A stretch of DNA of 64,000 bases from Chitinophagales bacterium. GTDB lineage: Bacteria > Bacteroidota > Bacteroidia > Chitinophagales > CAIOSU01. Location: positions 33,679 through 97,678 of the forward strand of contig JAWXCB010000077.1 of assembly GCA_034440455.1 (NCBI GenBank). The letters are read 5' to 3'. The notes beneath the pieces were generated by a model. That model searched no databases. It had not been told where the DNA came from and was given only the letters and a program-made list of their open reading frames with translations. Numbering within the stretch: position 1 is the first letter of the stretch; the number at the start of each line of letters is the position of its first letter. This document shows, piece by piece, positions 10,180-64,000 of this stretch. The translations under genes and the position numbers were made by a program.

Positions 10180-11034
10180 GTGCAGATGCGTATGCTATCT
10201 TTGTCAGCAATGGAGTTGACCGATTATACGCTGATAAATGCCGAACCTACCTCGCTTGGCAAATACTGGAAAGGTCTTTGGAAGTACAGAAGAATGATAA
10301 GCGTTTTTGCCCTACAGGAAATTAAGGTCTCCTACGCGCAAACATTTTTTGGTCTTTTCTGGCTGTTATTTAAGCCGTTAATTGTACTGGGAGTGTTTAC
10401 GTTCCTTTTTGGTAATGTAATAGAGATATCCGGAATGAAACATCCTTATGCGCTGTTTGCATTTTCCGGCTTGATTGCATGGAATTACTTCAACTTTTTA
10501 GTTGGCTCGGGCAGCGGGGCGCTGATTAATAATCAACACCTGATTCGTAAAATGTATTTTCCCAGAATGGTACTGCCGCTTGCAAAAGTATTGGTAGGCT
10601 TGGTGGAGGCGGGAGTCTCTTTTTTGATATTGTTCACTTTGATGATAATTCTTGGTTATCCTTTTTCGGTGAAACTGTTGGCGTTGTTTGTTTTTCTTTT
10701 TTTTAATATTATATCCGGATTGGGAATCGCACTTTGGCTGAATGCCCTCAACCTTCGCTATCGTGATTTAAACCATTTCATTCCGGTGCTCATCGGATTT
10801 CTGATTTGGCTTACCCCTGTATTCTACCCATCCACGTTGATTCCACAGGAGTTTTCTTTTCTGCTATACCTGAACCCGATGGCAGGAATTATTGAGTGCT
10901 ATCGCTGGGCAATTCTGGGCGACCCGTTTCCATCAATAAAATATCTTATTGCGATTGCTGAAGTGGCGGTTGTTTTTATTTCAGGAGTGTGGTTTTTCAT
11001 CAGAATGGAAGATGTGATGGCTGATTATCTTTAG
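10180..11034 (+). CDS. wzm: ABC-2 type polysaccharide/O-antigen exporter permease (Wzm/TagG-like)
   Basis: 284 aa with about 6 TM helices. N-terminal WKYRRMISVFALQEIKVSYAQTFFGLFWLLFKPL is typical of ABC-2 permeases, as is YFPRMVLP. Alternative ATG starts at 10186 and 10210. Confidence 0.8.
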   Translation: MQMRMLSLSAMELTDYTLINAEPTSLGKYWKGLWKYRRMISVFALQEIKVSYAQTFFGLFWLLFKPLIVLGVFTFLFGNVIEISGMKHPYALFAFSGLIAWNYFNFLVGSGSGALINNQHLIRKMYFPRMVLPLAKVLVGLVEAGVSFLILFTLMIILGYPFSVKLLALFVFLFFNIISGLGIALWLNALNLRYRDLNHFIPVLIGFLIWLTPVFYPSTLIPQEFSFLLYLNPMAGIIECYRWAILGDPFPSIKYLIAIAEVAVVFISGVWFFIRMEDVMADYL

Positions 11035-11243
11035 TGATTCCATCCCGGCTAAGGTTGAAGTATTTGATTTTTCACCTTCTCAGCAAGAGTTTTTGAGCAA
11101 GTGTTTCGCTATCGGATTCCAGCGGTAAATATTTCAGTAGGGTGACTTCCGTCCGTATGGGAAAGGATGTCGCTGTTTACCTTTAAACACTGTTCCTTGT
11201 TGCTTTCTGAAACAATCCTTAACTTTAGACAAACATAAATGCC

Positions 11244-12134
11244 ATGAGACGTGTAATGCGCGATGATGCGCTCGAAGCTAAGTTCCAGCGAGAAGGATAT
11301 GTGGTGATTCCTTTTATGACAAAGGAAGAAGTGGATGGGCTGAAGCAAAAATATTTTGAAACCCTTCCGCATAGTGGCGGGCAAATAACTGCTTCAGAAA
11401 CCGGGGTGGCAGATTCAAGAAACATAACCTACGATTTCACTTTCATTGACAAAAATGTTGCTTACAAGCGTGAAGTCTTTAAAATCATCACTGAATATTT
11501 CGCCCTTCACGTGGAGAAATGGCTTGCCGATTACAAGCCAATCATAGCCAACTATATCCATAAGAAAGGAGGAGGAGGCGAAGTGCCGCTGCATCAGAAC
11601 TACGCATTTGTTGACGAGCGCAAATGTACCTCGGTCTCCATTTGGCTGCCGTTGGTTGACAGCACTGAAGAAAACGGAACACTGCAAATTGTCCCCGGCA
11701 GCCATAAGCGCTTTTGTGAAATCAGGGGTCCGATGGTTCCTTGGGATTTAGATGATATCAAAAACGAAATCATCAATAATTTTTTAGTTCCGCTCAACAC
11801 AAAAGCGGGCAACGCAGTGATTTTAGATGACAGCATTGTTCATTACTCTGCAATCAACAAAACGAACGGGTTGCGTCTCACGATTCAGCTTATTTTAATT
11901 CCTGAAGAATTTCCTTCCATTCAATATCGGATGAATCCAGAAGTTAGCAGGGATGATGTAAATATTTTGGAAGTGAATCATGATTTTTATATGGAATCCA
12001 CTCCATGGAAAGAGCCGGAAGGTGCAAAAAAAATCGGCACCCTGAAATACCAGCACAACCCGATGTCAGTGGATGAGTTCAGAAAGAAACTTTTTGCAAG
12101 GCGATTTGATGAGAAGGAATTGCAAAGAGTATAG
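11244..12134 (+). CDS. PhyH-family Fe(II)/2OG dioxygenase paralog 1, with HQN instead of HQD
   Basis: FQREGYVVIPF; PLHQNYAFVDE; SIWLPLVDSTEENGTLQIVPGSHK; GNAVILDDSIVHYSAIN; RLTIQ. Confidence 0.75.
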   Translation: MRRVMRDDALEAKFQREGYVVIPFMTKEEVDGLKQKYFETLPHSGGQITASETGVADSRNITYDFTFIDKNVAYKREVFKIITEYFALHVEKWLADYKPIIANYIHKKGGGGEVPLHQNYAFVDERKCTSVSIWLPLVDSTEENGTLQIVPGSHKRFCEIRGPMVPWDLDDIKNEIINNFLVPLNTKAGNAVILDDSIVHYSAINKTNGLRLTIQLILIPEEFPSIQYRMNPEVSRDDVNILEVNHDFYMESTPWKEPEGAKKIGTLKYQHNPMSVDEFRKKLFARRFDEKELQRV

Positions 12135-12175
12135 CCTGCAACTCGCGGGGATGGAAAACTAAATACTAACCATAC

Positions 12176-14107
12176 ATGGTAACCAGAATTTTCAAAGAGT
12201 CAGGTCTTCAAGAGCAATTCGACCGTGATGGGTTTGTGGTGCTTCCTTTGTTGAATACAGAAGAAGTAACCAAGCTTACCGTTTTTTTTCACAGCCTGCA
12301 TCAACAAGCGCCTTCAGGATTTTACTCTTCCGTTTTCAGCGACAACCTTGAATTCAAAAATTCAATTAAAACCTTCGCTGAAAAAATTTACGCATCAAAA
12401 GTTGATTCCACTTTTCAAGGGATTAGAAAGCTTGGCGCCAGTTTTCTTTGTAAATCACCGGGTGCTGAGGGCAGAATGCCCGTTCATCAGGATTGGACGG
12501 TGGTGGATGAATCGAAATTTTGTTCCATCACCATTTGGGTTCCGCTGGTTGATACGGATGAATCAAACGGTGCCATCAGAGTTTTGCGGGGCAGTCACAA
12601 ACTCACGAATACGCTTCGCGCGCCAAACGTGGTGAGTGAATATGAAAATGTGAAGGACGAAATCTGGAATGAGTTGGAAACGCTGCCGATGAAAGCGGGT
12701 GAAGCCTTTGTTTTTAATCATGCGCTGATTCATGCTTCCTCCCCTAACATTACTTCAAAAGAAAGAATTGCTGTCGCGTATGGTTTAATACCGCTTGAGG
12801 CAGAATTGTTTCTTTATCACAAAAATGAAAACAACAAACTTGAGCAATACAAGATGCCGGATGATATGTTTTTGCGTTATCACAACATCGGTGAGCGCGC
12901 TACATTCGGTGAGAAAGTCGGGGAGTTTGATTATGAGGAAAAACAAGTGAATTCATTGAAGTTGCACCACCTGTTAACGAAGATGAGAAGGGAGAGAAAC
13001 ATGCAACCGCTTTTTAAAGATTCGGCAGTGCTGGAATTTTTTGAGCGGGAGGGATATGCAAAAATTAAAGTGCTGGATGAAAAAGAAATAAAGGAACTTC
13101 TGGACTTCTACAATTCATTAGATATGAAGGGCGAAGGGGAGGGATACGGTATCACCATAAGCTTAGAGAGCAAGGATAAAATTTTTGCCGAGCGCATTCT
13201 CAGTAAAATTTATGAAATAGCGCTGGCGAAAGTTGCATCTCATTTCCAAAATGCGAAAGCGCATCTTGCCAGTTTTATAATAAAGGATGCAAATTCCAAG
13301 ACTATTGTGCCTGTTCATCAGGACTGGAGTTTCATTGACGAAGAAGACAAATATTGCTCCGTGACCTGCTGGATACCGTTAGTGGATGTTACATTTGAAA
13401 ATGGCGCGCTTGGAGTTATTCGCGGCAGCCATAAATTTTTTACCACCTACCGCCCTTCCCCGTCTCCTCAATCCCCCGTGCCGCTGGCAGAACACATCTT
13501 CACGATCTTCCCCTATTTAAAAGTTGTCGAAATGAAGGCGGGCGAGGCGTTGGTGTTTGATAACAGGACATTTCATGGCTCGCCACCCAATTCATCCAAC
13601 CATCCTCGGATTGCTATCGGGATTGGACTGACACAGAAAGACGCAAAACTTTGTCATTTCTACCATAAACCGGGTTGCACTTATAAAGATAAATTACTAA
13701 AATACAGGATTGACCCGAGTTTTTTTAGAACATACGAGAATGCAACTCTCTCAAAAATGTATGACAAAGGAGAAACAATTGAAGGTTATCCGTTGGAAGG
13801 AGAAGTGCCCTATGCATTTCCAAAGTTTACGGCAGATGAATTGATTGAATTGGTTAAAGAACATGGAAACGAATTCAATATGCACTTAGGCGAGTCGCTG
13901 GCTAAACTTTTTAATTACGATATAAACGGCACAAGAAAAGAAGATGTGCCATCACAGCCCGTACCTGTAGAGTTTGAAAAAGTGGAAGAAATTCAGGCGC
14001 AACAAGCAGCGGCAGAATATGTATGGATAGATGACCGAAGTTTTTTCAGGAAATACACACTTGGCAACATTCTGCGCGAAATGAAGAAAAAAATTTTGGC
14101 AGAATAA
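12176..14107 (+). CDS. tandem di-domain PhyH-family dioxygenase (two complete catalytic domains in one ORF)
   Basis: Domain 1: FDRDGFVVLPL, PVHQDWTVVDE, TIWVPLVDTDESNGAIRVLRGSHK, IHASSPN. Domain 2: FEREGYAKIKV, PVHQDWSFIDE, TCWIPLVDVTFENGALGVIRGSHK, FHGSPPN. Confidence 0.85.
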   Translation: MVTRIFKESGLQEQFDRDGFVVLPLLNTEEVTKLTVFFHSLHQQAPSGFYSSVFSDNLEFKNSIKTFAEKIYASKVDSTFQGIRKLGASFLCKSPGAEGRMPVHQDWTVVDESKFCSITIWVPLVDTDESNGAIRVLRGSHKLTNTLRAPNVVSEYENVKDEIWNELETLPMKAGEAFVFNHALIHASSPNITSKERIAVAYGLIPLEAELFLYHKNENNKLEQYKMPDDMFLRYHNIGERATFGEKVGEFDYEEKQVNSLKLHHLLTKMRRERNMQPLFKDSAVLEFFEREGYAKIKVLDEKEIKELLDFYNSLDMKGEGEGYGITISLESKDKIFAERILSKIYEIALAKVASHFQNAKAHLASFIIKDANSKTIVPVHQDWSFIDEEDKYCSVTCWIPLVDVTFENGALGVIRGSHKFFTTYRPSPSPQSPVPLAEHIFTIFPYLKVVEMKAGEALVFDNRTFHGSPPNSSNHPRIAIGIGLTQKDAKLCHFYHKPGCTYKDKLLKYRIDPSFFRTYENATLSKMYDKGETIEGYPLEGEVPYAFPKFTADELIELVKEHGNEFNMHLGESLAKLFNYDINGTRKEDVPSQPVPVEFEKVEEIQAQQAAAEYVWIDDRSFFRKYTLGNILREMKKKILAE

Positions 14108-14116
14108 ATTGAAAGT

Positions 14117-15013
14117 ATGTTTTCTTTCCCAAAAATGCTCAAGGTTTTTCGTAATGATATCCATCAACTACAGTTTGAGCGGGACGGGTTTCTCGTGCTG
14201 CCATTTTACAATCAAGATGAGATTCGGGAATTGAATGAACTCTATCATCGCCTCCATCCTAAAGATGAAAAAGGTTTTTTTCCCAGTACGTTTTCAAAAG
14301 ATAAAAATTACCGCAAAATCGCGGATGAAGAAATCCGAAGAATCGGACAGCGGTCTATGAGTAATTACATCCAGGATGTTAAAGTGATGTGCGGCAGCTT
14401 TATCGTAAAATCATCAGGACCGGAAAGTGCGATGTGTGTCCATCAGGATATGACTTTGGTTGATGAGGCTAAATACACGGGCATCAATATCTGGATACCG
14501 CTGATTGACTTGAACGATGAAAACGGAACTCTTGAAGTCCTGCCCGGCAGTCACAGAATATTCCCGACTTATCGCAGTTCGACAGTTCCCGGTATTTATG
14601 ATGAGAGTAGTGCGGAAATCAAAAAGTATCTGGTGAGGCTTTACCCAAAAGCCGGTGAAGCAATTTTCTTTGACCAAAGCATTATTCATTATTCTGATGC
14701 CAATCTTTCAAACCAAACTAGAATCGTCACCAACACCTATTTTACACACAAGGACGCCACGTTTCAAATCTGCTATTGGCAAAAGGATTTCGGGAACAAA
14801 GTGGAACTATTCCGTGAAGATGAACATTTCATGACCGATTTTGAGCAGTTCGGGGAAAACATTCATGACCGCCCTAAAATTGGAAAAAGCTTGGGGCTTT
14901 ATGATTATGATTTTCCGAAAATCACCCCGGAGCAACTGAATGAGCTTTATGGGAAAAATGGCAAATCAAAAAAATCATTATTCAAACGCGTACTCCATTC
15001 ATTATTCAGTTAA
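14117..15013 (+). CDS. PhyH-family Fe(II)/2OG dioxygenase paralog
   Basis: FERDGFLVLPF; CVHQDMTLVDE; NIWIPLIDLNDENGTLEVLPGSHR; IHYSDAN; C-terminal SLFKRVLHSLFS. Confidence 0.85.
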   Translation: MFSFPKMLKVFRNDIHQLQFERDGFLVLPFYNQDEIRELNELYHRLHPKDEKGFFPSTFSKDKNYRKIADEEIRRIGQRSMSNYIQDVKVMCGSFIVKSSGPESAMCVHQDMTLVDEAKYTGINIWIPLIDLNDENGTLEVLPGSHRIFPTYRSSTVPGIYDESSAEIKKYLVRLYPKAGEAIFFDQSIIHYSDANLSNQTRIVTNTYFTHKDATFQICYWQKDFGNKVELFREDEHFMTDFEQFGENIHDRPKIGKSLGLYDYDFPKITPEQLNELYGKNGKSKKSLFKRVLHSLFS

Positions 15014-15015
15014 AG

Positions 15016-15966
15016 ATGACAAAGCGAATTTTCAAAGACGATGCAATGCAAGAGAAGTTCCAAAAACAGGGATTTATCACGGTGCCGTTTTTGGATGAAA
15101 ATGAATTGGATTACCTCAACCATTTTTTTGATGAGCTGCATCCAAACCCTCAGGGTGGATTTGTGTCTGGAAGTTACTCAAGCGACTTTGCATATAAAAA
15201 GAAAACAAGCGATGAGATCGTTCGCGTATTCAGCAGGCATTATGAAAGACTATTCGTAAACTACCAACCTTTTGGAGCTACGTTTCTATATAAACTTCCT
15301 TTCCAGGAAAGCGGAGTCGCTGTTCATCAGGATTGGACAATTGTTGACGAAACGAAAGCTGTCGCCCTGAATTGCTGGGTTCCTCTTTGCGATGTTACGA
15401 TGGATAACGGGCCCATAATGATTTTACCTGGTAGTCATTTTGATAACCTTAATGTAGTTCGCTCGCCAACTTTGCCGTTCTTTTTTTCAGGAAGCGATGA
15501 AATCATCGTCCAAGAATTGGAACCCATGGTGGTAAAGGCAGGAACTGCAGTCATCTTGAATCAAAGCGTAATACACTACTCGCCTGCCAATCAAAGCGGG
15601 CAAATCAGAAAAGCTATCACTGCGGGCGTTAAATCTGCTGGCGCACAAATGTATTTCCATTACAAAAATCCTAATATCGGCATGGATGAGTTGGAAGTAT
15701 TTGAAGAAGATGATGATTTCTTGCTAAGATTTGAAAACTTTGCAGAAGATATTGCGAACCGTCCAAAACTCGGCAGGAGTAAGGGATTCATTCCTTACAA
15801 GCTGCCACAGTATAGCGGGAATGAACTTTATGAACTGGTTAAAAAGATGAAATCATCTGCTGGGTACTCACTTAAATCAAAATTTAGTAAGCAGGAAGAA
15901 CAGCCTTCTGTTGGTCATAAACGCCAGTCATTCATGCAACGCCTTTCTTCCATATTTCAAAACTGA
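15016..15966 (+). CDS. PhyH-family Fe(II)/2OG dioxygenase paralog
   Basis: FQKQGFITVPF; AVHQDWTIVDE; NCWVPLCDVTMDNGPIMILPGSH; IHYSPAN; C-terminal SFMQRLSSIFQN. Confidence 0.85.
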   Translation: MTKRIFKDDAMQEKFQKQGFITVPFLDENELDYLNHFFDELHPNPQGGFVSGSYSSDFAYKKKTSDEIVRVFSRHYERLFVNYQPFGATFLYKLPFQESGVAVHQDWTIVDETKAVALNCWVPLCDVTMDNGPIMILPGSHFDNLNVVRSPTLPFFFSGSDEIIVQELEPMVVKAGTAVILNQSVIHYSPANQSGQIRKAITAGVKSAGAQMYFHYKNPNIGMDELEVFEEDDDFLLRFENFAEDIANRPKLGRSKGFIPYKLPQYSGNELYELVKKMKSSAGYSLKSKFSKQEEQPSVGHKRQSFMQRLSSIFQN

Positions 15967-15967
15967 A

Positions 15968-16819
15968 ATGCCTGAAAAGATTTTACAGGATGACCAATTG
16001 GATAAGCAACTCTTGGAGACAGGATTTGCAGTAGTTTCCTTTTTAAATCAGAAAGAAACCAGCGCTTTAGTTGACTTTTTCTATCAGCATCATCCCAATG
16101 GAGTTTCTGGTTTCTATGCTACCGCTCATTCCCACGATATTGCATTCAGAAATCGGATGAACGATGAAATAAAAAAAAACTTTCAAAGAGCCATTGGCAA
16201 TTACTTTCATAAATGTACTGCGCTTGGCGGGTCGTTCGTGGTGAAATCAAATACGCAAAAAGAACGACTACACCCTCACCAAGACTGGAATATTGTGGAC
16301 GAAGAACAGCATCGCTCATTTAATATTTGGGTTCCGCTGGTTGATTTGACTGAAAAAAACGGAACCATCCGGGTGATGCCCGGCAGTCATCGCTGGGTGA
16401 AAAATTATCGCGGACCAAATATCCCTGACCTTTCTGAAAGCGCACAAGAACAAATCTGGCAGCGTATGACTCCGCTTTATATGAAAGCAGGCGAGGCGTT
16501 AATTTATGACCATCGGTTGTTTCACGCATCTGACTCGAACACTACGGATGAGTTGCGTATTGCCACCGTATTTGGAATCATTCCTGAGAGAGCGCAAATG
16601 CTCTACTATTATGGAAACGGGAAACAAGTGGAAATTTATAAGAGCAGCGCGAATTTTTTTCTGAATGAAAATATGCAGAAGGGAAACCTGATACTCCAGA
16701 AAGTAAACACCGTTCAATTACCAGTTGTATCCTTTTCACAATTCCTACAGTTGGAAGAAACAAGTGTTAATAGGGTAAAGAAAACCGGACTTTTTAATTT
16801 TATTAGAAGATTGTTCTAA
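15968..16819 (+). CDS. PhyH-family Fe(II)/2OG dioxygenase paralog
   Basis: The track ORF starts at 15911. ATG 15968 (MPEKILQDD), 1 nt after the upstream stop, is more plausible. HPHQDWNIVDE; NIWVPLVDLTEKNGTIRVMPGSHR; FHASDSN; C-terminal GLFNFIRRLF. Confidence 0.85.
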   Translation: MPEKILQDDQLDKQLLETGFAVVSFLNQKETSALVDFFYQHHPNGVSGFYATAHSHDIAFRNRMNDEIKKNFQRAIGNYFHKCTALGGSFVVKSNTQKERLHPHQDWNIVDEEQHRSFNIWVPLVDLTEKNGTIRVMPGSHRWVKNYRGPNIPDLSESAQEQIWQRMTPLYMKAGEALIYDHRLFHASDSNTTDELRIATVFGIIPERAQMLYYYGNGKQVEIYKSSANFFLNENMQKGNLILQKVNTVQLPVVSFSQFLQLEETSVNRVKKTGLFNFIRRLF

Positions 16820-16828
16820 TTTACTGTT

Positions 16829-17761
16829 ATGGAATTAAGCGTTAGCGCATTACTCAACCGGATATTAGACAGGCCTACAGTAGTCAACCCGCAGCAGGAA
16901 ATCAGGAGGGAAGGCTTTTTTTTAGATGAAAAAAATCATGAACACTATTTAAAGCATGGATGGTGTACGATTAAAAATATGACCACAGCTGAGGAAATAG
17001 AATCCTTCATGCACACTTTTCACGAGATTTCTAAGCTTAATGGTTTTGAACTGGATAAAAATCTGCTTAACAGCGGAAGACTTTTTAATCCGGAAATAAG
17101 GAAAAAAGTGCAGGAAGTAATTAATCTGAATGCTAAAACCATTTTGCCCCGTATGTTCAAGATGGAAAAGGTGGACCCGCACACTGGTGGAGCATTTCAG
17201 GTGAAACCTCCGCATATAAACAGCGACTTATTGATTCATCAGGATAGCACAGTGATAGATGAAGACAAAGACTACTGCCTCTTTGTATGGATTCCTTTCT
17301 GTGCTATTACGATGGAGAACGGACCTATCTCTTTTCTTCCGGGCAGCCACCTTTGGGGAAACAACCAACGCAGTTTAGGCGTACCCTGGCAGTTTCGCAA
17401 GCACACGAAGACGCTCTATCAATATGTGAAAACGGTGACAGTAAATGCAGGCGATGCAATTGTATTTGACCCTGCAACCATTCATGCGAGCGCTCCGAAT
17501 CTTTCAAAAGAAATTCGACATGCCATAACAATCACCGTGTTGAGAAGAAATTATCAGTTGGTTTATTACTTCAGAAACAAAGAGATAGATGATAGCCTGA
17601 TTGAAAAATATTATGTGGATGAAACCTTCTATTACGGATATGATTTCATTTCAAAACCCGATGAAACCAAATGGAGAAAAGAGATTGTGAAATTTGAACC
17701 TTTTAACCTGACTGAAAAGCAATTAGTCAGGCTGATAAAAAAACATTTACCAAAAGAGTAG
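16829..17761 (+). CDS. PhyH-family Fe(II)/2OG dioxygenase paralog
   Basis: LIHQDSTVIDE; FVWIPFCAITMENGPISFLPGSH; IHASAPN. Confidence 0.8.
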   Translation: MELSVSALLNRILDRPTVVNPQQEIRREGFFLDEKNHEHYLKHGWCTIKNMTTAEEIESFMHTFHEISKLNGFELDKNLLNSGRLFNPEIRKKVQEVINLNAKTILPRMFKMEKVDPHTGGAFQVKPPHINSDLLIHQDSTVIDEDKDYCLFVWIPFCAITMENGPISFLPGSHLWGNNQRSLGVPWQFRKHTKTLYQYVKTVTVNAGDAIVFDPATIHASAPNLSKEIRHAITITVLRRNYQLVYYFRNKEIDDSLIEKYYVDETFYYGYDFISKPDETKWRKEIVKFEPFNLTEKQLVRLIKKHLPKE

Positions 17762-17814
17762 GTCGCAAATATGCAAGAGAGCGCAGCGACTGCATGATAA
17801 GATTCGTTTAACCG

Positions 17815-49256: not shown

Positions 49257-49403
49257 AATATTTTATGAATATTGCTCAAGTGACTACGATTCGGAATCTA
49301 AACTGATACTGTGCGAAAATTTAAAAAAGGCTTCACCTTTATCTGAATATATTTTATCAAAACTTATTACAAATAAAATGTTTTGTTCTGTTTCATAATT
49401 AGA

Positions 49404-52843: not shown

Positions 52844-53533
52844 TCACGCTTGAAACACTCTGACGATGCGGTAGAGCGACCATGTTTCTTTCATTGCCTT
52901 TGCAATAGTTACCCACGACCCTCCTTTTGACATTCCTGATTTCCTCGGGTGATAGACGGAAAGTGTTTCAATCGGTTTCACTCCTGATTTTATCAACTTT
53001 GCGCAGATTTCACTTTCAATAATTGAACTGTTTAATTGAGGATTCACTTTTCTTAACTGGTCATTCCGGTAAACTTTTATCCAATTTACATCCCTTAATT
53101 TAATGCCCAGCAGAAACCGGTTAAACAGTTTATTTAATAAACTTAAATTTTTTCGATACCTGCTGTATTCATGATTTTCTCTGTAGAATGAGAAAAAATA
53201 TCCTGAATTGAATTCCTTTACAGCCTGCAATTCATCCGGGTTAAACTGCCCGTCACTGGGAACCGCGCACACATATTCATAGCGCGCTTGCACGTAGCCT
53301 GTTTTTAAAGCTGCGCCTATCCCTAAATTTATCTTGTGCTCAATAATCCGGATTTGGGGTATTTCCTGCTTTAGCTTTTCGCAAATCTCAGAAGTACTGT
53401 CGGTACTCCCGTCATTCACAATAATGATTTCATACTGCGCGGCATTTTTACTCAAAAAATCGAAGCATTTATAAGCAGTCTCCGCCAGTGTGCCTGCTTC
53501 GTTGTAGCAAAATAGAATGATAGACCAGTTCAA
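52844..53533 (-). CDS. family 2 glycosyltransferase, DPM1/polyprenyl-phosphate sugar synthase-like
   Basis: WSIILFCYNEAGTL, IIIVNDGSTDST and AVPSDGQF. Lies 21 nt downstream of the GT-C/TPR gene on the same strand. Confidence 0.7.
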   Translation of the reverse strand: MNWSIILFCYNEAGTLAETAYKCFDFLSKNAAQYEIIIVNDGSTDSTSEICEKLKQEIPQIRIIEHKINLGIGAALKTGYVQARYEYVCAVPSDGQFNPDELQAVKEFNSGYFFSFYRENHEYSRYRKNLSLLNKLFNRFLLGIKLRDVNWIKVYRNDQLRKVNPQLNSSIIESEICAKLIKSGVKPIETLSVYHPRKSGMSKGGSWVTIAKAMKETWSLYRIVRVFQA

Positions 53534-56829: not shown

Positions 56830-57261
56830 ATGATAAAATATAATGAACAAAATATTTCAGTTGGACTTTGTTATGTTATCCTGTCTTTAATAATTGGAGA
56901 ATGCCATCCGTTCAGCCTGGTAGATATGTATAATAGATTTCCCGAGAAGGCTTGTACCTTTTACCTCACAGACACTAAAGGAAAACTGTTGCCGATAGAA
57001 AATTATTATCACTATAAAACGGGCGACTTAACGCACAATTACAATGCTATCTGTAAAAGCAAAAATATTACTGGCGATAATCACACATTGACGTCCGAAC
57101 AATTGCACAATATAGGTGAGATAATGATGAGCCAATTGGGGCAACGATGTTTTTCTAAACCTCTTGCAAACACCATTCAACTTCATCAAATTTATTTCTT
57201 TTTAAAAAACGATTCCATTCAAAGTAACGATATTATAATGTATGAAGCCTGCAACGAGTAA
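56830..57261 (+). CDS. hypothetical protein (143 aa), overlapping the downstream membrane gene
   Basis: ATG ORF that overlaps 57242-58111 by 20 nt. No motif recognised. Confidence 0.45.
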   Translation: MIKYNEQNISVGLCYVILSLIIGECHPFSLVDMYNRFPEKACTFYLTDTKGKLLPIENYYHYKTGDLTHNYNAICKSKNITGDNHTLTSEQLHNIGEIMMSQLGQRCFSKPLANTIQLHQIYFFLKNDSIQSNDIIMYEACNE

Positions 57262-58111
57262 ACCTGAAAATGCAACAGATATAGAGTGGTTTTATCTGAA
57301 ACTGTCATTCGTGTTTGTTAGTCTTCCCTTAACGGGTATCATGGTTTTTGGCGGTTCGGGATGCCCCTTTCCAACAGGTATATGTAAGTTATACAGTTTT
57401 GCGCCTTTATTTACTCCAATTGGCAAGCCCATACTTGTCTCGGTTTTTGTATTGTTGTGCGTATTCTATCTTTTTGAAATAAGGATGTTGCTCGCCACCT
57501 TTTTTTTGTTTCTTCTCTCGTGCATTATTATTTCGCACCACGAATCGAACGGCATTTTTTATAGAGCGACTATTCTTACTACCTTATGGGGCGTCCAATT
57601 TTTAGCCTACTTGCGATTACGATTAAATCCTGATTTCGATGTACGGCACTTTCGGGTTCATTATGGGATACAAATTATAGCCGCCACCTATGCGCTGGCA
57701 GGCATTGCCAAACTCAGGGCATCTGGTATAGATTGGATAAATGCAGGAGACTTTTTCTCTATCCAAGTGATAAAGAACTATGCCTATCTTTATTTTGATA
57801 CAGGATCAGAAACAACTTGGCAGGAAGGAAAAACGATCGCCTATTTTCTGTTAAATCATCATGAAATCATCCGATTTTTTCTCGCTGTTGCATTAATGTT
57901 GGAAGTTTTTTGTTTGGCAGCAACATTAGGCGCTAATATGCGCTATGTGTTTGGAATTGGTTTGTTGTTCATGCATATAGGAATTGCGTTTATCATGGGT
58001 ATAGGGATAAGTGTAATTGCCAAACCAATGATTGTTTTCTTCTTCAATCCGCTATACCAGTCAAGACGGTTTATTATCTTCGTGAATAATAAAATAAGAT
58101 TCTTCCATTAG
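57242..58111 (+). CDS. polytopic membrane protein, possibly HTTM/SdpB-like
   Basis: 289 aa with about 7 TM helices. IAATYALAGIAKLRASGIDWINAG resembles the HTTM-domain Y..AG..K......W..G segment. This is a weak by-eye assignment. Confidence 0.4.
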   Translation: MKPATSKPENATDIEWFYLKLSFVFVSLPLTGIMVFGGSGCPFPTGICKLYSFAPLFTPIGKPILVSVFVLLCVFYLFEIRMLLATFFLFLLSCIIISHHESNGIFYRATILTTLWGVQFLAYLRLRLNPDFDVRHFRVHYGIQIIAATYALAGIAKLRASGIDWINAGDFFSIQVIKNYAYLYFDTGSETTWQEGKTIAYFLLNHHEIIRFFLAVALMLEVFCLAATLGANMRYVFGIGLLFMHIGIAFIMGIGISVIAKPMIVFFFNPLYQSRRFIIFVNNKIRFFH

Positions 58112-58403: not shown

Positions 58404-59888
58404 TTAGTCACAATAAACCACATTTTCTTCCGCTATCCTTTGGTGAGGGATACCCAACAATGTCATTGACCAGTGCAAAAGTTTCAGTCTTCTTTTTCTG
58501 TCCTTTTCGGTTCCCGTATTCGGTGAAGTCCACGAACCATCCTGAGAAACTGTTACGTTCCATTTTTCCGGATTTATCCAAAGAGGAGTACCGAGAGCAA
58601 GTTGTGTTTCGGTAACATTGCTTACTTGGTATATCCATTTGCGATTCTTGAACAAAAAAGCAATGGTCTGAAGAAAATCACGAAATCTTTCTGTAGGAAA
58701 GCCGACCATGACGTTTACGGTTGATGGCATACCTGCTTTATAAGCATATTCTAAAATGTTGCTGGCACTCTTGATTTTATTATGATTCTTACTCATTCCA
58801 TCAAGAACCATTTCAGACCCGCTTTCTAATCCAAAGGCAAGACCGGTGCAACCGGCCCGCTTTAATTTCTGAAAGAAGCTCCAGGTCATGCGCTTGTCAA
58901 GGGTGGCTTGCCCTGTCCATGAAAGTTTTATGCCTCGCTCTATTATTATGTCGCACATTTCTTCTAATGCCTTGAAATGCCCATTGACCAGCGAGTCTGC
59001 AAATAAAAAAACAAAAGCGGGCGGTGCGTTTCCGTTTTTAGCATTTTTGTTTGCTGGCAATCGCAGGGAATGCTCATTCATCCTGTGAACCATTTCGGCT
59101 ACTACATTCTCAGCGCTGCGGGAGCGAAATTTTTTCCAAAATATATGTTCATAACAAAAAGCACAATGGTAAACACATCCCCTGGAAGCCATAATGGGAA
59201 TATCGTAAGGAGAAGGATATTTATCCAAAGGGAAATCATTAAAATCGGGAAAAGGAAGCTTATCGAGATCAGCTATTTGAGGACGTGGGGGCGTCCAGGT
59301 GGGAACACCATTAATGAGAAGACCTATACCACGAATCGAACTGACATCCTCCTGATTTTCCAAGGCCTTCATCACCTCAAGCAATGTTTCCTCTCCCTCT
59401 TTAGCTACTACGATATCTGCTACGCCCGTCTTTAGTAATATATCACCCTCCCTGTCCTGGGCTACATTAGGACCTCCAAATATCATGGGAACGCCCGGCA
59501 CAAGGACTTTCAACTCCTTAGCAAGCAAAATGCCCGGTGTCATATTCGTGAGGTTTGTTGAAAATCCAACGACATCCGGTTTAAAAGAAAGAATATCTTC
59601 TGCCCATTGCTTTAGGGGAAGTGGAGTAGTGTTAAAATGTGAACCGCGGTTAAAACGTACGTCTGTCTGACTGTAGTCAAGTGTCCACTGGTTGTAACAA
59701 TCTGCCGCCCAAAATCCCCGTTTTATTAATTGAGGAGAAGAATTATAAAAATCTAAATTGAAATCAAAGCACTTTACAACGTATCCATGGGAAACCATGA
59801 AGGATTTAAGAGCCGCAATGCCAAGAGGAGGGATTGCTCCCCAAGCCGGACAATTGACTAAAGCTATTCTCCGCCTTTCTTGATTCAT
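58404..59888 (-). CDS. B12-binding-domain (class B) radical SAM protein 5
   Basis: RIALVNCPAWGAIPPLGIAALKS; ASRGCVYHCAFCY; LAFGLESGS. Confidence 0.8.
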   Translation of the reverse strand: MNQERRRIALVNCPAWGAIPPLGIAALKSFMVSHGYVVKCFDFNLDFYNSSPQLIKRGFWAADCYNQWTLDYSQTDVRFNRGSHFNTTPLPLKQWAEDILSFKPDVVGFSTNLTNMTPGILLAKELKVLVPGVPMIFGGPNVAQDREGDILLKTGVADIVVAKEGEETLLEVMKALENQEDVSSIRGIGLLINGVPTWTPPRPQIADLDKLPFPDFNDFPLDKYPSPYDIPIMASRGCVYHCAFCYEHIFWKKFRSRSAENVVAEMVHRMNEHSLRLPANKNAKNGNAPPAFVFLFADSLVNGHFKALEEMCDIIIERGIKLSWTGQATLDKRMTWSFFQKLKRAGCTGLAFGLESGSEMVLDGMSKNHNKIKSASNILEYAYKAGMPSTVNVMVGFPTERFRDFLQTIAFLFKNRKWIYQVSNVTETQLALGTPLWINPEKWNVTVSQDGSWTSPNTGTEKDRKRRLKLLHWSMTLLGIPHQRIAEENVVYCD

Positions 59889-60453: not shown

Positions 60454-61896
60454 TCAGGAACGTGCACGTTTCCCCATTTCTTTAGCTTCATTCAAAAGAA
60501 TATGTAAGGGTTTCGTTTCTAAGTCAATTAACATATTACTCAAAGCATCATCTTCCGCCAGGTTTATTGTTTTAAACAATGATGTATAGTCAAAATCATC
60601 CGGCAATTCTTTTTTTATCGTTGTTAATACCTCTGTTACCTTTTGAATTCTATTCGTTTTGACCTTGCCCTGCAAGCCATTGTTCAAAAGTAGTATGAGC
60701 TCTTCTATTGACTTCGCATGGATGGTAATCTGGCTTTGCTTCGCGCTTCGCTCCGATGCAAGCATGCGCCACTTTTTAACCTGATTCACGGCATCATTAA
60801 GGTGATTTTTATTTTTTCCTTCTATCGGGGTTTTCTCCGGAAGCATTGATAAATGGTTTTCGTAATGACAGATAATTTCATCCAGCTCATTAATCTCCAA
60901 CGAATGAATTGATCTATCCAGCGGAAAAAAAATGGTGTGGAAATAAACAGGAATACTTCGCTCATTGCAAAACCTGATAAAATCAGGCATCTCTTTCCAG
61001 TTGTCCCGTAGCATACATGCCGAAATTCCAAAGAAAGTGTTTCTCTCTTTGCAGTACTTGTAGAAGAAATCAATATTCTCCATTACCCTGTCAAAATTTG
61101 CGTTTATCCGAATCTTTTCATACACCTCTTTTTGAAGGGAGTCGAGCGAAACACCAATATGAAAATTGGTTTTAGCAAGTATATTCTTCACGCGATTGTT
61201 CAGGATAGTTGCGTTCGTCTGCACGGAAATTCTCACCGATGGGTTCATCTTCATCAGCATCTCCCATATCTTGTAGTAGGTTTCAATTAAAAACGGTTCC
61301 CCACCATAAAACTTCACTTCCTCCAAATAAGGAATAAATTCTTTAAGTTGTTCTAAAAAGTTATCGTCATATGGGCTTTTCAAGGGTTCTCGCTTTTCTC
61401 TATTCGTTCTGATCAAAGAAGAATAATCACCGCTGCACATGACACATTCGAGGTTGCATGTATTGTCAAGTTCAAACTCTATTGTGGAAGGAAACAGGTT
61501 CTCGTTGAATTTGCTGTGGTCATATTGCTTGGCTTTAGTGGCATCGAAATTATAAGCTGCTATTTGGGTCAGGCAGCTGTTACATCCTTTTGATAAATCA
61601 TTATTTTTAATCGCTTCTCTCAACTCATTTGCCTTCTCACCAAACCAAATGTCTCTGATTGAATTTTCCGGATAGCTGCCTAAAAAATAAGTACGGTTAT
61701 AACAGCAGGCTATCGCTCTGCCATGATGCCCGAGGTAAATGCTTTTAAATGGAGCATGGCAAATATATTTTTGCGGACCTAAAGGGCGGTGCTGATTGTA
61801 ATCCCTCAGAATTTTTTTTGTTATGCCCTTACTTGCTTTAGATAAGTTATAGTTTACCGGGTCGCTTTTGAAGATTTTTGTCAGGAAATTGCCCAT
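60454..61896 (-). CDS. radical SAM protein with N-terminal twitch/SPASM-like Cys domain, paralog 1
   Basis: N-terminal CHAPFKSIYLGHHGRAIACCYN...IRDIWFGEKANELR...GCNSC precedes the radical SAM core LDNTCNLECVMCSG, with GGEPFL. The C-terminal ~130 aa is helical. Confidence 0.75.
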   Translation of the reverse strand: MGNFLTKIFKSDPVNYNLSKASKGITKKILRDYNQHRPLGPQKYICHAPFKSIYLGHHGRAIACCYNRTYFLGSYPENSIRDIWFGEKANELREAIKNNDLSKGCNSCLTQIAAYNFDATKAKQYDHSKFNENLFPSTIEFELDNTCNLECVMCSGDYSSLIRTNREKREPLKSPYDDNFLEQLKEFIPYLEEVKFYGGEPFLIETYYKIWEMLMKMNPSVRISVQTNATILNNRVKNILAKTNFHIGVSLDSLQKEVYEKIRINANFDRVMENIDFFYKYCKERNTFFGISACMLRDNWKEMPDFIRFCNERSIPVYFHTIFFPLDRSIHSLEINELDEIICHYENHLSMLPEKTPIEGKNKNHLNDAVNQVKKWRMLASERSAKQSQITIHAKSIEELILLLNNGLQGKVKTNRIQKVTEVLTTIKKELPDDFDYTSLFKTINLAEDDALSNMLIDLETKPLHILLNEAKEMGKRARS

Positions 61897-61908
61897 ATTA
61901 ATTATCGT

Positions 61909-63345
61909 TTACAAATCAAGTTTATAGAACATGCTTATATGTTCTTTGATTTCATCCAGGTTCTTTGCTTCAAATCCCTCAACAAAAGTGTTAAGGCTGA
62001 CACCCTCCTTGTTAAGGAGATGCATAAAATAAGGCAACAGGTCAAAATTTTGTGGGAGCGCCTGTTGTAATAATGTCAATTTCTCTTCAAATGCCGGAAC
62101 CCGATTCTCCATTTCAGATGGCGGCAAATCAGTTCGGGACTTGGTTTTAGTTGCCACATGCTCAACAAAATCTGACATATTCTTGATATCAGAAGTATCT
62201 TTTTGTGAGCTTGCCGCATTTTTTTTCCAATCATGCAATTGGCTTAAAAAGTCTTTATAATGCTTTTTGTTTTTCTTTTCAATAGCATTTACCTGGGGGA
62301 TATTCACTAACTCTGCTTCAAGCTGTGAGCAGATTTCAATTAATTTAAGCTCATCGAGCTGTTTTAACGAATATTTTGCAGGATTGGTTATTGGATGGAA
62401 ATAAACGGGCACTTGCAATGAGTTGCATAGTCGAATGAAATCAGGAGCCTCCTGCCAATTAGTTGTCATCATGCAAGCTGAAATTCCAAAAAAGGTATCC
62501 TTGTCTTTACAGTAAGAATGGAAGTATTGAAGGTGCTCCATTACCCTGTCGAATTTTGCATTCACTCTTATCGCTTCATAATTTTCTTTTTGAATCGAAT
62601 CAAGCGACAGGTTGATATGGAAGTTTGTTTTAGAAAGGATCTCTTTGACGCGGTTGTTGAGAATCGTCCCGTTCGTTTGCACTGAAATGCGGACGGAAGG
62701 ATTCACTGCAATAATTTTCTTCCAGATATCATAGTATAACTCAATCAGGAATGGCTCGCCTCCATAGAATTTCACTTCAACTAAATGAGGGATGAATTCA
62801 TCTAACTGCCGTATAAAATCATCATCATAGGGCGTAAGCAATTCGTTTCGCTTTTCCCTGTTCTTGCGGATCAGGGAACTGAAATCACCGCTGCACATCA
62901 CACATTCAAGGTTGCAGGCATTGTTCAGCTCGAATTCAAAAACACTAGGGTAAAGATTTTTGTTGAGCCGGTGCTGGTCGTACATGGTGGATTTCAATCC
63001 ATCGTAATTACCAGCAACCAGCACCTGCTTGCAGTCTCCGCAGCCAAGCGAAAAATTATAGTGCTCAAGATAATTGCGAAGTTTTTCCGCTCTTTTGCCA
63101 AACCAGATTTCCCGGATTGAATGTTCAGGATAAGTGCCCAATACATAATGCCGGTTATAGCAGCATGAACTTATTCGGCCATGATGTCCAAAGTACAGAT
63201 TCTTCATGGGGGCAAAACACGCTGTTGTCCTTGCCGCCTCCGGACGGTTCTGATTATAGTCCTTCCTGACTTTTTCTGTAATCTCAGGAGAGACCGAAAT
63301 GCGCTCCTTTCTGAAAAGCATTGATTTTATTCGCTCGGTAATCAT
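61909..63345 (-). CDS. radical SAM protein with N-terminal twitch/SPASM-like Cys domain, paralog 2
   Basis: CFAPMKNLYFGHHGRISSCCYN...IREIWFGKRAEKLR...GCGDC, then LNNACNLECVMCSG and GGEPFL. Colinear with paralog 1. Confidence 0.75.
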   Translation of the reverse strand: MITERIKSMLFRKERISVSPEITEKVRKDYNQNRPEAARTTACFAPMKNLYFGHHGRISSCCYNRHYVLGTYPEHSIREIWFGKRAEKLRNYLEHYNFSLGCGDCKQVLVAGNYDGLKSTMYDQHRLNKNLYPSVFEFELNNACNLECVMCSGDFSSLIRKNREKRNELLTPYDDDFIRQLDEFIPHLVEVKFYGGEPFLIELYYDIWKKIIAVNPSVRISVQTNGTILNNRVKEILSKTNFHINLSLDSIQKENYEAIRVNAKFDRVMEHLQYFHSYCKDKDTFFGISACMMTTNWQEAPDFIRLCNSLQVPVYFHPITNPAKYSLKQLDELKLIEICSQLEAELVNIPQVNAIEKKNKKHYKDFLSQLHDWKKNAASSQKDTSDIKNMSDFVEHVATKTKSRTDLPPSEMENRVPAFEEKLTLLQQALPQNFDLLPYFMHLLNKEGVSLNTFVEGFEAKNLDEIKEHISMFYKLDL

Positions 63346-63437
63346 TGTCCGGTATGTCTTCGTAGTGAAATTACTTCATTCAGGATGATTTTTTAGTTTC
63401 TTCCTGCTCGCGTCCCGCCACAGCTGTACAGGAGACA

Positions 63438-63623
63438 TCAGGAAGAATTCCAGAATGAGTTGGAGCGATGGGTGTAGGTGTTTAGATCGCTACCCTGTAA
63501 CTTAATGATATGTTTTATCAGCTCTCTTCTAACTCCGAAAATCCGAAACAACGCTTCAAAGGAAACAAAGATGAATACAGCAATAAAAAACAGATATTTC
63601 CAATTTGCCCGTTTCAGTTGCAT
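63438..63623 (-). other. short ORF resembling an isolated N-terminal TM anchor (possible gene remnant)
   Basis: 61 aa, MQLKRANWKYLFFIAVFIFVSFEALFRIFGV... then a stop. It resembles the N-terminal anchors of the SGNH-like genes at 39312-39689 and 39707-40867. Confidence 0.3.
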
Positions 63624-64000
63624 CGTGTCATTCTTTCAAAAGATAGAGGATATTTGACTTCGATACTCTCAGCAACCGATTTCGCAAAAACAGCATATCC
63701 TTTAGAATTATAGTGACCATCATTAGTCCAATAGTATTGCTCAATATTTTCCTTGTTAAAAAATTTACCAAGCTGTTCATATAGGACAATATTCATTATT
63801 GCCAATGAATCCAACGCTGAAGCTATGGGTCGAATATTATTTTTATTTGAAAAACTGCCTTTGAATTCTACGGGAGTTGGATGCAACACCGCGATGAAAT
63901 TCGCTCCATGCATTTTGCAAAGTTTGTTGAAATCGTCAAGGCACTGCACAATAGCTTCCCGCGCTTCTTGGTCAATCTTTTCGGAATTTTCTTCTTTCAT
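63614..64000 (-). CDS. SGNH/AlgJ-like protein, C-terminal part (5' end beyond window)
   Basis: The frame is open to the window edge. ANFIAVLHPTPVEF and YYWTNDGHYNSKGYAVFAKSVAESI are homologous to the C-terminus of 38746-39129 (YWQKDGHNNSRGYQLWADAL). Confidence 0.55.
   Translation of the reverse strand: MKEENSEKIDQEAREAIVQCLDDFNKLCKMHGANFIAVLHPTPVEFKGSFSNKNNIRPIASALDSLAIMNIVLYEQLGKFFNKENIEQYYWTNDGHYNSKGYAVFAKSVAESIEVKYPLSFERMTRCN

Follow-up and report, generated by a model that had tools for sequence, protein, structure and literature searches.

A Bacteroidota gene set joining oxygenase arrays, a WelO5-type halogenase homologue and radical SAM enzymes to glycan-type export genes, and its possible role in envelope biosynthesis

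Introduction

What product could call for long arrays of oxygenases, a halogenase homologue and several radical S-adenosylmethionine (SAM) enzymes encoded beside a glycan-type exporter? This question is raised by a stretch of 64,000 nucleotides (the window, whose positions are used throughout) from a Chitinophagales bacterium (GenBank assembly GCA_034440455.1, contig JAWXCB010000077.1, positions 33,679 to 97,678). To the right of a flank of housekeeping genes, the window carries most of a conserved set of genes that spans at least 57 kb and whose host is an uncultured freshwater member of the Bacteroidota.

We give about an even chance to the answer that this is one conserved, modular set for envelope biosynthesis. 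Its product would be a polyprenyl-linked glycan or glycolipid that undergoes tailoring on the cytoplasmic membrane's inner face, export by a Wzm/Wzt transporter and then glycosylation by membrane glycosyltransferases (GTs) of the GT-C fold. What the analysis shows is the families, catalytic motifs and folds of the proteins, where they are predicted to lie and how they co-occur across genomes; the substrate, the order of the steps and the reactions are those that we infer. An initial annotation of the window had proposed a similar scheme, with cytoplasmic tailoring, Wzm/Wzt export and periplasmic GT-C action. The scheme fits the predicted locations and folds of the proteins described below, but it lacked chlorination and the four GT-C enzymes.

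Results and Discussion

The gene families recur together in related genomes

A Pfam scan of all 45 open reading frames (ORFs) at 10180-64000, which is the basis of the Pfam negatives given below for the window, yielded no housekeeping gene and reproduced the PhyH, radical SAM, GT2, DUF1800/DUF1501, pentahaem cytochrome and Wzm/Wzt inventory of the initial annotation. It likewise returned no match to regulator, polyketide or nonribosomal peptide synthase, fatty-acid or sugar-nucleotide domains and none to an integrase or transposase, in agreement with the absences that had been reported from reading the window.

For comparison with other genomes, 19 homologues of the WelO5-family protein encoded at 24442-25314 were aligned and one genome per species was scanned. 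This yielded 23 loci, all in metagenome-assembled genomes (MAGs) of Bacteroidota type (Chitinophagales, Balneolaceae and Lishizhenia), and two more loci were obtained from homologue look-ups. Families were counted in the 20 loci of at least 12 kb that are anchored on a WelO5 homologue, by comparing locus ORFs with the window proteins. PhyH genes, usually four to nine of them, are present in 16 of the 20 loci, a paralogue of the GT-C-fold membrane proteins in 14, class B radical SAM genes in 12 and Wzt in 10. The remaining families are found less often: DUF1800 in 7/20, the cytochrome and the OlsC/LpxO-like hydroxylase in 6/20 each, SGNH in 5/20, JmjC and GT2 in 4/20 each, and the GT39-TPR protein and N-twitch radical SAM enzymes in 3/20 each.

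The loci span different orders and, with Balneolaceae, a different lineage at phylum level. Gene order varies from locus to locus, and L010, L011, L014 and L025-L027 directly intersperse left-half with right-half families of the window. In L011, for example, genes for WelO5, PhyH, cytochrome and GT-C paralogue proteins lie directly beside those for AspH-like, JmjC and class B radical SAM proteins. The earlier view that the sub-clusters belong together is borne out by these data: the families recur, reshuffled, among the 20 loci, and the lack of co-occurrence that had been named as its refutation was not seen.

Related loci also carry recurring genes that are absent from the window. These encode UbiA, a CMAS-like methyltransferase, a 672-amino-acid (aa) GT32-like protein, LPG_synthase_TM, a class III aminotransferase, a further radical SAM enzyme, an FA_desaturase-family protein and another arylsulfotransferase (ASST). 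UbiA genes are located in L006, L008, L017 and L032. At the edge of a PhyH array in a distant relative (L029, 19286-21616) are genes for a DprE1-like flavin-dependent (FAD) oxidase (NCBIfam, 7e-60) and a short-chain dehydrogenase/reductase (SDR). By analogy, UbiA together with a DprE1-like oxidase and SDR would resemble the polyprenyl-phospho-pentose donor route of arabinan synthesis.

A scan with a long GT32-like protein, which is encoded just beyond the right edge of the window, recovered a compact module of the form Wzm-Wzt-radical SAM-AsnB-UbiA-GT32-like-N-twitch-GT32 in three loci (L032, 325-9764; L033, 1957-8455; L034, 627-8743). GT4 or GT39-TPR genes lie nearby, and PhyH, WelO5 and class B radical SAM genes number zero. 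Because the glycan-type chassis stands alone in these loci, the oxidative block of the window looks like an add-on. The same module places an N-twitch radical SAM enzyme in a glycan context.

Export and glycosylation genes

The gene set begins at its left end with a Wzm-type ABC-2 permease (10180-11034, plus strand; PF01061, 1.5e-12). The Wzt/TagH-like ATPase (18668-19966; PF00005) is encoded 7.6 kb away on the opposite, minus strand. Among NCBIfam models, the permease matches the galactan exporter Wzm/RfbD (1.5e-13) and KpsM (7e-07), and the ATPase matches TagH (1.7e-51) and Wzt/RfbE (4e-43), in each case below the curated cut-offs. The ATPase ends in a 180-aa domain without a match. The Wzt_C domain is not universal in the Wzt family, and the L030 relative gives only a faint match to it.

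Two short GT2 proteins, both encoded on the minus strand and 28% identical, are candidate ArnC/DPM1-like enzymes. The first (40898-41599; PF00535), a candidate polyprenyl-phosphate sugar synthase, matches NCBIfam ArnC at 3.3e-22, a match that covers positions 3-216 of 316 and scores 79 bits against a cut-off of 529; it also matches dolichyl-P-hexose transferase (1e-09) and PpgS (3.5e-06) below their cut-offs. The second (52844-53533; PF00535, 7.9e-24) has less specific NCBIfam matches.

Three polytopic membrane paralogues (558-568 aa, with a pairwise identity of approximately 26%) had been listed as novel. They are indeed paralogues without a Pfam or NCBIfam match, but structural modelling points to a known fold. 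An AlphaFold model of paralogue 1 (27446-29152, minus strand), built from 27 sequences, has a mean pLDDT of 87.6 and a pTM of 0.88, and a Foldseek search of the Protein Data Bank (PDB) placed ArnT at the top (probability 1.00, TM-score 0.41), followed by WaaL, AglB, AftB, EmbC and ALG3. Residue E39, just after the first transmembrane (TM) segment, is at least 90% conserved and is a candidate for the acidic catalytic residue expected in the first outer loop of GT-C enzymes. Paralogue 2 (32327-34003, minus strand) is 26% identical to paralogue 1 over 557 aa (E 8e-37), and paralogue 3 (49383-51086, plus strand) is also 26% identical to it (E 8e-27). Judging from the model, the three paralogues have a predicted GT-C fold of the ArnT-like kind. 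Paralogue 3 also gave a weak match to the Leptospira LA_3751/3752 putative glycosyltransferase family.

A fourth candidate is a 973-aa protein of GT39/PMT_2 type (53555-56476, minus strand) with approximately 13 TM segments and a C-terminal TPR domain. Its membrane part and N-terminus have no Pfam match of their own, and hhalign found no relation between this protein and the GT-C paralogues. Full-length homologues at 31-41% identity carry PF13231 (PMT_2), and others are named glycosyltransferase family 39. Together with the three GT-C-fold paralogues, this protein brings the GT-C enzymes of the locus to four.

Thirteen PhyH genes and other oxygenases

The most numerous family comprises 13 PhyH genes with 15 domains. 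Seven genes with eight domains form an array on the plus strand (11244-18660; starts at 11244, 12176, 14117, 15016, 15911, 16829 and 17815; PF05721, 1e-18 to 1e-43), and four genes with five domains form a second array on the minus strand (19963-24317; starts at 19963, 21620, 22534 and 23424). The double-domain genes are 12176-14107 and 19963-21699. Two further genes on the minus strand lie at 25309-26124 (PF05721, 1.1e-26) and at 41647-42570, the latter encoding the fifteenth domain, which shares 50% identity with the first of the two domains of 12176. Where the Pfam cut-off is 22 bits, the 13 proteins score 62-151. The HxD...H triad is intact in all 15 domains (HQD or HAD plus a distal His in the alignment), which indicates that they should be oxygenases; a halogenase role for the PhyH domains was considered and rejected because HxD is kept throughout.

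An all-against-all blastp comparison shows that the PhyH paralogues in the window are 21-50% identical, whereas each has its own orthologue at 55-77% identity in L006-L008. This pattern points to separate conserved jobs for the individual paralogues. The array at 19963-24317 is the most constant neighbour of the WelO5 homologue in other genomes. For the paralogue at 22534, the nearest solved structures (E 1e-9 or weaker) are MysH, SnoN/SnoK, EvdO2, AndA and mammalian phytanoyl-CoA hydroxylase. SnoN, SnoK and EvdO2 act on sugar moieties, so the PhyH fold has precedents in carbohydrate chemistry.

Most PhyH paralogues and their orthologues end in a short amphipathic segment of net positive charge, with the pattern S-phi-phi-x-x-phi-x-x-phi-F, after a linker rich in K, S and G (for example at 14969-15013, 16775-16819, 18616-18660, 21620-21670 and 23424-23480). 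This tail may anchor the protein in the plane of the membrane or act as a peptide for docking. To the extent that can be judged from sequence, such basic amphipathic tails support a location of the tailoring enzymes at the membrane face. Signal peptides are absent from all of the PhyH, WelO5, JmjC and radical SAM proteins.

Two other oxygenases are encoded in the right half of the locus. The JmjC/Cupin_8 protein (45748-46734, minus strand; PF13621, 4.7e-34) has JMJD5, FIH and JMJD6 as its nearest structures. The protein at 48507-49256 (plus strand), which has a hydrophobic C-terminus, retains its earlier AspH-like label as far as the fold is concerned (PF05118, 1.1e-40). However, its best NCBIfam scores are to the lipid acyl 2-hydroxylases OlsC (9e-32) and LpxO (2e-21), both far below cut-off, and it is here relabelled OlsC/LpxO-like. 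Bacterial gene neighbourhoods that join beta-hydroxylase and PhyH-type genes to sulfotransferases have been described, with protein substrates proposed (PMC2938197), and the gene set reported here is not described in that study.

A WelO5-type halogenase homologue

The gene at 24442-25314 (plus strand), formerly annotated as P4H-like, proves to belong to the WelO5 family of iron- and 2-oxoglutarate-dependent (Fe/2OG) enzymes. Its product matches PF22814 over the full length of the model (1-277 of 277; 5.4e-52) with 177.5 bits against a cut-off of 27. Residues H161-C162-G163 align with the H-V-G of the WelO5/WelO15 structures, H259 corresponds to the distal His, and DQLSYF is a segment shared without change. 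All 19 homologues keep H161, C162 and H259, and conservation of G163 among them is at least 90%. The protein is remote from the solved enzymes, with a best PDB E-value of 3.9e-28 over the C-terminal 220 residues.

In a WelO5-family enzyme, an HxG motif predicts aliphatic chlorination rather than hydroxylation, although there may be HxG proteins that hydroxylate. The carbons on which WelO5-type halogenases act are unactivated aliphatic ones. Because one of the oxygenases is a WelO5 homologue of halogenase type, chlorination should enter any model of the pathway.

In several relatives, of Lishizhenia type and some others (L024, L025, L026 and L030), divergent WelO5-family genes stand together in twos or threes. 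Those of L030 are next to adjacent wzm and wzt genes and an Acyl_transf_3 gene, and no recognisable PhyH gene lies within 10 kb.

Seven radical SAM enzymes

All seven radical SAM proteins of the window have the CX3CX2C motif. Five have an N-terminal B12-binding region and two have an N-terminal SPASM/twitch region. The class B-type genes are an adjacent pair at 42884-45722 (starts at 42884 and 44337), 46889-48484 and 51206-52807, all on the plus strand, and 58404-59888 on the minus strand. The radical SAM domain PF04055 is above cut-off in the pair and in 46889, and it matches at 8e-22 in 51206. The B12-binding domain (PF02310; 5e-21 in 51206) is above cut-off in 46889, 51206 and 58404, and it is aligned but below cut-off in 42884 and 44337.

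HpnJ is the best NCBIfam match for three of the five class B enzymes (5e-46 for 42884 and 3e-55 for 44337, for example), far below the cut-offs. AprD4 is also among the NCBIfam matches of the class B enzymes, and their best matches include HpnJ, HpnR and a ladderane lipid enzyme. The protein at 46889-48484 best matches the Sden_1168 P-methyltransferase family (2.8e-49), TokK is the nearest structure to that at 51206-52807, and the protein at 58404-59888 best matches ApyD (8e-38), with a RiPP (peptide made by ribosomes and modified after translation) C-methyltransferase model at 2e-32, both below cut-off. HpnJ acts on a lipid-bound sugar. The HpnJ and AprD4 matches, as sequence similarities, only show that carbohydrate chemistry is within the range of the class B radical SAM families.

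The two N-twitch paralogues (60454-63345, minus strand) are 50% identical; the match to NF033640 (N_Twi_rSAM) reaches 2e-47 and 162 bits against a cut-off of 170. Homologues lie between GT32-type genes beside Wzm/Wzt in L032-L034.

A proposed pathway

We propose that the chassis would be an ordinary ABC-transporter-dependent pathway for a glycan or glycolipid. GT32-type transferases, aided in relatives by UbiA, GT4 and AsnB, would build a substrate anchored on polyprenyl phosphate at the inner face of the cytoplasmic membrane, where enzymes lacking signal peptides could modify it at many distinct positions. The 13 PhyH proteins would oxidise this substrate, many of them perhaps held at the membrane surface by their basic amphipathic tails, and the OlsC/LpxO-like and JmjC-like hydroxylases would join in the cytoplasmic tailoring. 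Aliphatic chlorination would be contributed by the WelO5-type enzyme, and C-methylation, or a rearrangement like those of HpnJ and AprD4, by the five B12-type radical SAM enzymes; the two N-twitch enzymes would also act at this stage. The tailored product would be exported by Wzm/Wzt. For the periplasmic steps, the two ArnC/DPM1-like GT2 proteins would supply polyprenyl-phosphate sugars, which the three ArnT-like paralogues and the GT39-TPR protein would transfer on the outside, and the SGNH, ASST-like, DUF1501/DUF1800, pentahaem cytochrome and HTTM-like proteins would finish the product.

A bolder possibility is that the locus defines a new class of envelope glycoconjugate in several Bacteroidota orders. 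Here a lipid-anchored intermediate would be modified at approximately 20 positions by dedicated 2OG oxygenases and B12-radical SAM enzymes and chlorinated by the WelO5 homologue, and a periplasmic redox step linked to menaquinone or cytochrome would involve the HTTM-like protein and the pentahaem cytochrome. No halogenated polymer or glycolipid of the cell surface, and no WelO5-type enzyme acting on a membrane-bound substrate, would have preceded it. We put this forward tentatively, and expect that it will sooner fail than hold.

Several observations weigh against an envelope glycan or glycolipid. Wzm, Wzt, the GT2 proteins and the radical SAM enzymes all match named NCBIfam families at scores far below the curated cut-offs, and residues 251-432 of Wzt have no Pfam or PDB-sequence match even at E 5-10. 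In the window there is no initiating phosphoglycosyltransferase of WecA/WbaP type, no sugar-nucleotide gene and no large set of cytoplasmic GTs, and the Pfam scan gave no flippase of GtrA/ArnEF type for polyprenyl-phosphate sugars. A repeat-unit glycan has no obvious need for approximately 20 site-specific tailoring enzymes, and an aliphatic halogenase needs an unactivated C-H bond, as lipids or amino acids more typically offer than sugars do. The JmjC protein, the GT39-TPR protein and the GGCX-like fold of a 289-aa protein (described below) have protein-modifying relatives, so a protein target is possible, at lower weight. Finally, L009, L021 and L022 show a WelO5 homologue without partner genes; L021 lies at a contig end.

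The missing scaffold-building genes, which had been remarked upon in the initial annotation, are indeed missing from the window, but this is partly an effect of the window edge. A contig found through the N-twitch protein (L028) extends approximately 3.5 kb beyond base 64000 (the source contig ends at ~67.5 kb). It supplies the rest of a 351-aa SGNH gene whose C-terminal part is at 63614-64000 (minus strand; L028 gene table), followed by two GT32 (Gly_transf_sug) genes and the longer GT32-like gene, which is cut by the end of L028. The long GT32-like protein is homologous to 672-aa PF04488 proteins in L008, L017 and L026, and relatives add UbiA, GT4 and AsnB. Even with these additions, sugar-nucleotide genes and a classical initiating transferase are lacking. 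A scan of metagenomes for contigs reaching further past the right edge returned only more distant loci. LPG_synthase_TM proteins are encoded in L007, L010, L023 and L027.

Alternative explanations

The substrate could instead be a membrane lipid, with a long chain of acyl, alkyl or isoprenoid type (perhaps even that of the polyprenyl carrier) hydroxylated, chlorinated and C-methylated along its length by regiospecific enzymes, flipped by the ABC-2 transporter and glycosylated outside, so that a glycolipid both polyhydroxylated and chlorinated would result. A long chain fits many position-specific enzymes, and aliphatic carbons are what WelO5-type halogenases are generally known to attack. The basic amphipathic PhyH tails, the hydrophobic tail of the AspH-fold protein and its best scores to OlsC and LpxO, the HpnJ, HpnR and ladderane matches of the class B enzymes, and the CMAS-like methyltransferase, FA_desaturase-family protein and UbiA of relatives all agree with this explanation, as does the best fold match, ArnT, which glycosylates a lipid. 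However, genes that make fatty acids, polyketides, sphingolipids or isoprenoids are absent from the window and from 26 related loci, the scores to OlsC and LpxO fall far short of cut-off, exporters of Wzm/Wzt type are known best as carriers of polymers, and GT32, AsnB and GT4 genes indicate a glycan part. We therefore consider a lipid substrate unlikely.

If the substrate were a ribosomal peptide, or a protein that is secreted or displayed at the surface, it would be hydroxylated, methylated or epimerised by radical SAM enzymes and halogenated in the cytoplasm, then O-glycosylated by the GT39-TPR and GT-C proteins after export, with a step at the membrane by the HTTM-like protein. This is suggested by the proximity of the JmjC protein to the protein hydroxylases JMJD5, FIH and JMJD6, by the AspH fold, by the resemblance of the GT39/PMT_2-TPR protein to protein O-mannosyltransferases and of the 289-aa protein to vitamin K gamma-carboxylase, by the ApyD/RiPP C-methyltransferase match of one class B enzyme and by peptide maturases among the lower matches of the N-twitch enzyme. 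A precursor was sought as a candidate and rejected: no small ORF in the intergenic regions of the window is conserved in related loci, and clustering of all small ORFs from 26 loci gave gene fragments only, in line with the earlier remark that no RiPP precursor is obvious. Peptidase (including leader peptidase), leader-recognition (RRE-type) and peptide-type exporter domains had no match among the 45 ORFs, the RiPP-family scores are all far below cut-off, the transporter is of the ABC-2 glycan/teichoic-acid type, and GT32, UbiA, AsnB and GT4 genes occur as neighbours. A peptide or protein substrate seems to us distinctly unlikely.

It is improbable that there is no single product, and that independent glycan-export, oxygenase-halogenase, radical SAM and DUF1800/DUF1501 modules merely lie side by side in a variable region near the replication origin. 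Such independence would account for the glycan module that stands alone in L032-L034, for WelO5 homologues alone in L009 and L022, for the presence of genes on both strands in many transcription units and for a membership that varies widely, with DUF1800/DUF1501, GT2, SGNH and N-twitch radical SAM genes each in only 3-7 of 25 loci. Against it, the families stay linked across distant lineages even as their order is reshuffled, the left-half and right-half families interleave in L010, L011, L014 and L025-L027, and approximately 54 kb of the window passes without a housekeeping interruption.

A catabolic set, directed through its oxygenases and periplasmic enzymes against some recalcitrant substrate outside the cell (a methylated or sulfated polymer, for example), would explain the many oxygenase paralogues, the sulfatase-superfamily-like DUF1501 proteins, the ASST-like protein and the periplasmic cytochrome, but it is very improbable given oxygenases and radical SAM enzymes without signal peptides, no SusC/SusD, TonB receptor, glycoside hydrolase or importer by Pfam among the 45 ORFs, a transporter of exporter type, and GT2, GT-C, B12-radical SAM and halogenase genes that are biosynthetic in character.

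Comparison with known systems

The envelope glycan or glycolipid pathway that we favour can be compared with ABC-dependent glycan and GT-C systems, such as mycobacterial galactan export by Wzm/Wzt followed by GT-C arabinosylation, teichoic acid export by TagGH coupled to glycosylation by GT2 and GT-C enzymes, ArnC/ArnT and GtrB/GtrC. Like these, the locus has an ABC-2 permease, a Wzt/TagH-like ATPase, short ArnC/DPM1-like GT2 proteins and several GT-C-fold proteins, with fold matches to ArnT, AftB and EmbC, and relatives add UbiA and a DprE1-like oxidase. It differs in that the window lacks a recognisable initiating transferase, flippase and Wzt_C domain, and in having four GT-C genes and approximately 25 cytoplasmic oxidative, halogenating and radical enzymes joined to the chassis. 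We know of no counterpart of this tailoring battery in any described glycan pathway, and literature searches returned neither a description of the gene set nor such a counterpart.

The WelO5-family protein resembles WelO5 and AmbO5, the carrier-protein-independent enzymes of cyanobacterial hapalindole-type alkaloid pathways, in its Pfam family (PF22814), in the replacement of HxD by HxG and in its second His and DQLSYF segment. In contrast to those pathways, the locus is in Bacteroidota, it lacks isonitrile and indole-terpene genes, PhyH arrays and an exporter are its neighbours, and some relatives have two or three copies. The PhyH proteins share their domain and HxD...H triad with the natural-product oxygenases MysH, SnoN/SnoK, EvdO2 and AndA and with phytanoyl-CoA hydroxylase, but thirteen genes in one locus, basic amphipathic tails and an exporter context set them apart. 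Several class B radical SAM enzymes and Fe/2OG hydroxylases in one locus are also a feature of proteusin-type RiPP pathways such as that of polytheonamide. Here, however, a precursor, leader-related protein, protease and epimerase of that type are lacking, and a glycan-type exporter and glycosyltransferases are found instead.

Should the proposed pathway be correct, widespread uncultured Bacteroidota of freshwater and soil would decorate their surface with a polyhydroxylated, C-methylated and probably chlorinated molecule, and radical halogenation and B12-radical SAM chemistry would extend from soluble secondary metabolites to envelope assembly. First functional contexts would also be gained for DUF1800/DUF1501 pairs, N-twitch radical SAM enzymes, the Pfam-less GT-C family and a bacterial GGCX-like membrane protein. 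Approximately 15 regiospecific C-H oxygenases would be candidate biocatalysts, and a WelO5 homologue together with a PhyH array, Wzt and a GT-C paralogue forms a signature that can be searched for.

Genomic setting

A housekeeping flank makes up the first 10 kb of the window, with genes for a tRNA U5-methyltransferase, DUF7935, parts of a 5'-nucleotidase and DnaA (8141-9607). Between dnaA and the left end of the gene set are tRNA-Ser(GCT) and tRNA-Pro(TGG) genes, and a strong 13-bp hairpin with a T-run is located at 9895-9927. These neighbours place the locus beside a likely replication-origin region. ORFs lie on both strands in many transcription units. A search with Rfam matched the two tRNAs only, with no riboswitch or other RNA, and a promoter and terminator scan, whose coverage does not extend to Bacteroidota promoters, found promoter-like sites no more commonly than in shuffled sequences.

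A recent horizontal island is not supported, as GC content (0.37-0.44 within the locus and 0.42-0.46 in the flank) gives no compositional sign of one and the window has no mobility gene. The 'island' is consequently best described as an accessory locus and not a recent insertion. Exact-sequence look-ups found the region in Chitinophagales MAG GCA_964539155.1 and in several JGI/Logan metagenome contigs belonging to this species. Contigs were obtained with the WelO5 and N-twitch proteins, and look-ups with the membrane paralogue and with DnaA gave no match.

Periplasmic, redox and membrane accessory genes

Two DUF1501/DUF1800 pairs are present, in which the DUF1501 copies are 50% and the DUF1800 copies 45% identical. 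In the first pair (minus strand), DUF1501 is at 29200-30486 (Pfam) and DUF1800 (30499-32231) is divided into ORFs of 442 aa (30499-31827) and 135 aa (31824-32231) that overlap by 4 bases, as a blastp comparison with the intact paralogue established. Gene calls in four further assemblies of the species (L001-L004) show this split as well, there as 431 and 135 aa. An error in the present assembly is therefore not its cause, and the protein may function as two ORFs. The second pair (35734-38601, minus strand) includes a DUF1501 protein with an N-terminal RRKF of twin-arginine type. DUF1800/DUF1501 pairs are known to travel with bacterial chitin-synthase operons (PMC5122149), in work that does not describe the present set.

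Two SGNH genes are intact and one is broken. An intact gene at 39707-40867 (minus strand; PF13472, 1.2e-11) encodes an N-terminally membrane-anchored SGNH/GDSL hydrolase or acyltransferase. The broken gene (38746-39689, minus strand) consists of ORFs 38746-39129 and 39312-39689 with an in-frame stop at ~39130, and its N-terminal TM part is a separate ORF. In a tblastn search, the alignment of residues 134-350 of the 351-aa paralogue to 38737-39369 (E 5e-27) stays in a single frame and runs through the ORF end. Frameshifts and fragments had been taken to mean that the region evolves quickly. This is not supported, since the paralogues are old, as judged from their identities relative to those of orthologues (21-50% versus 55-77%), the DUF1800 split is conserved and only one SGNH gene is clearly broken.

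The pentahaem c-type cytochrome (26267-27460, plus strand), which has a signal/lipoprotein N-terminus, contains exactly five CXXCH motifs, gives weak multihaem Pfam matches and was found in 8 of 25 related loci. In L001, L003 and L004 it is called as a protein of 417 aa with 92% identity while neighbour genes are 100% identical, which indicates a locally more variable gene or start site.

The 143-aa protein (56830-57261) and the 289-aa membrane protein (57242-58111), both on the plus strand, form a pair that recurs in L006 and L007. The 289-aa protein had been labelled HTTM-like, a label that now appears weakly supported: it has no Pfam match, HTTM included, at E up to 5, nor do any of 28 relatives, and it has none against PDB sequences. 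A fold resemblance of GGCX type would agree with the label. The AlphaFold2 model has a pLDDT of 94, and five of its eight best PDB matches are vitamin K gamma-carboxylase (probability 0.80-0.92, TM-score 0.44-0.46), the rest being at noise level. The family comprises approximately 325 representative clusters without a Pfam model, in which K157, W165 and E221 are invariant.

An ASST-like gene (34068-35741, plus strand; PF14269, 2.1e-10) whose product has N-terminal TM segments was missing from the earlier gene list. ASST homologues of a different kind are encoded in L023 (2576-3886) and L027. ASST-like proteins of two kinds thus recur beside the sulfatase-superfamily-like DUF1501 proteins, which by analogy hints at periplasmic chemistry of sulfate or phosphate esters.

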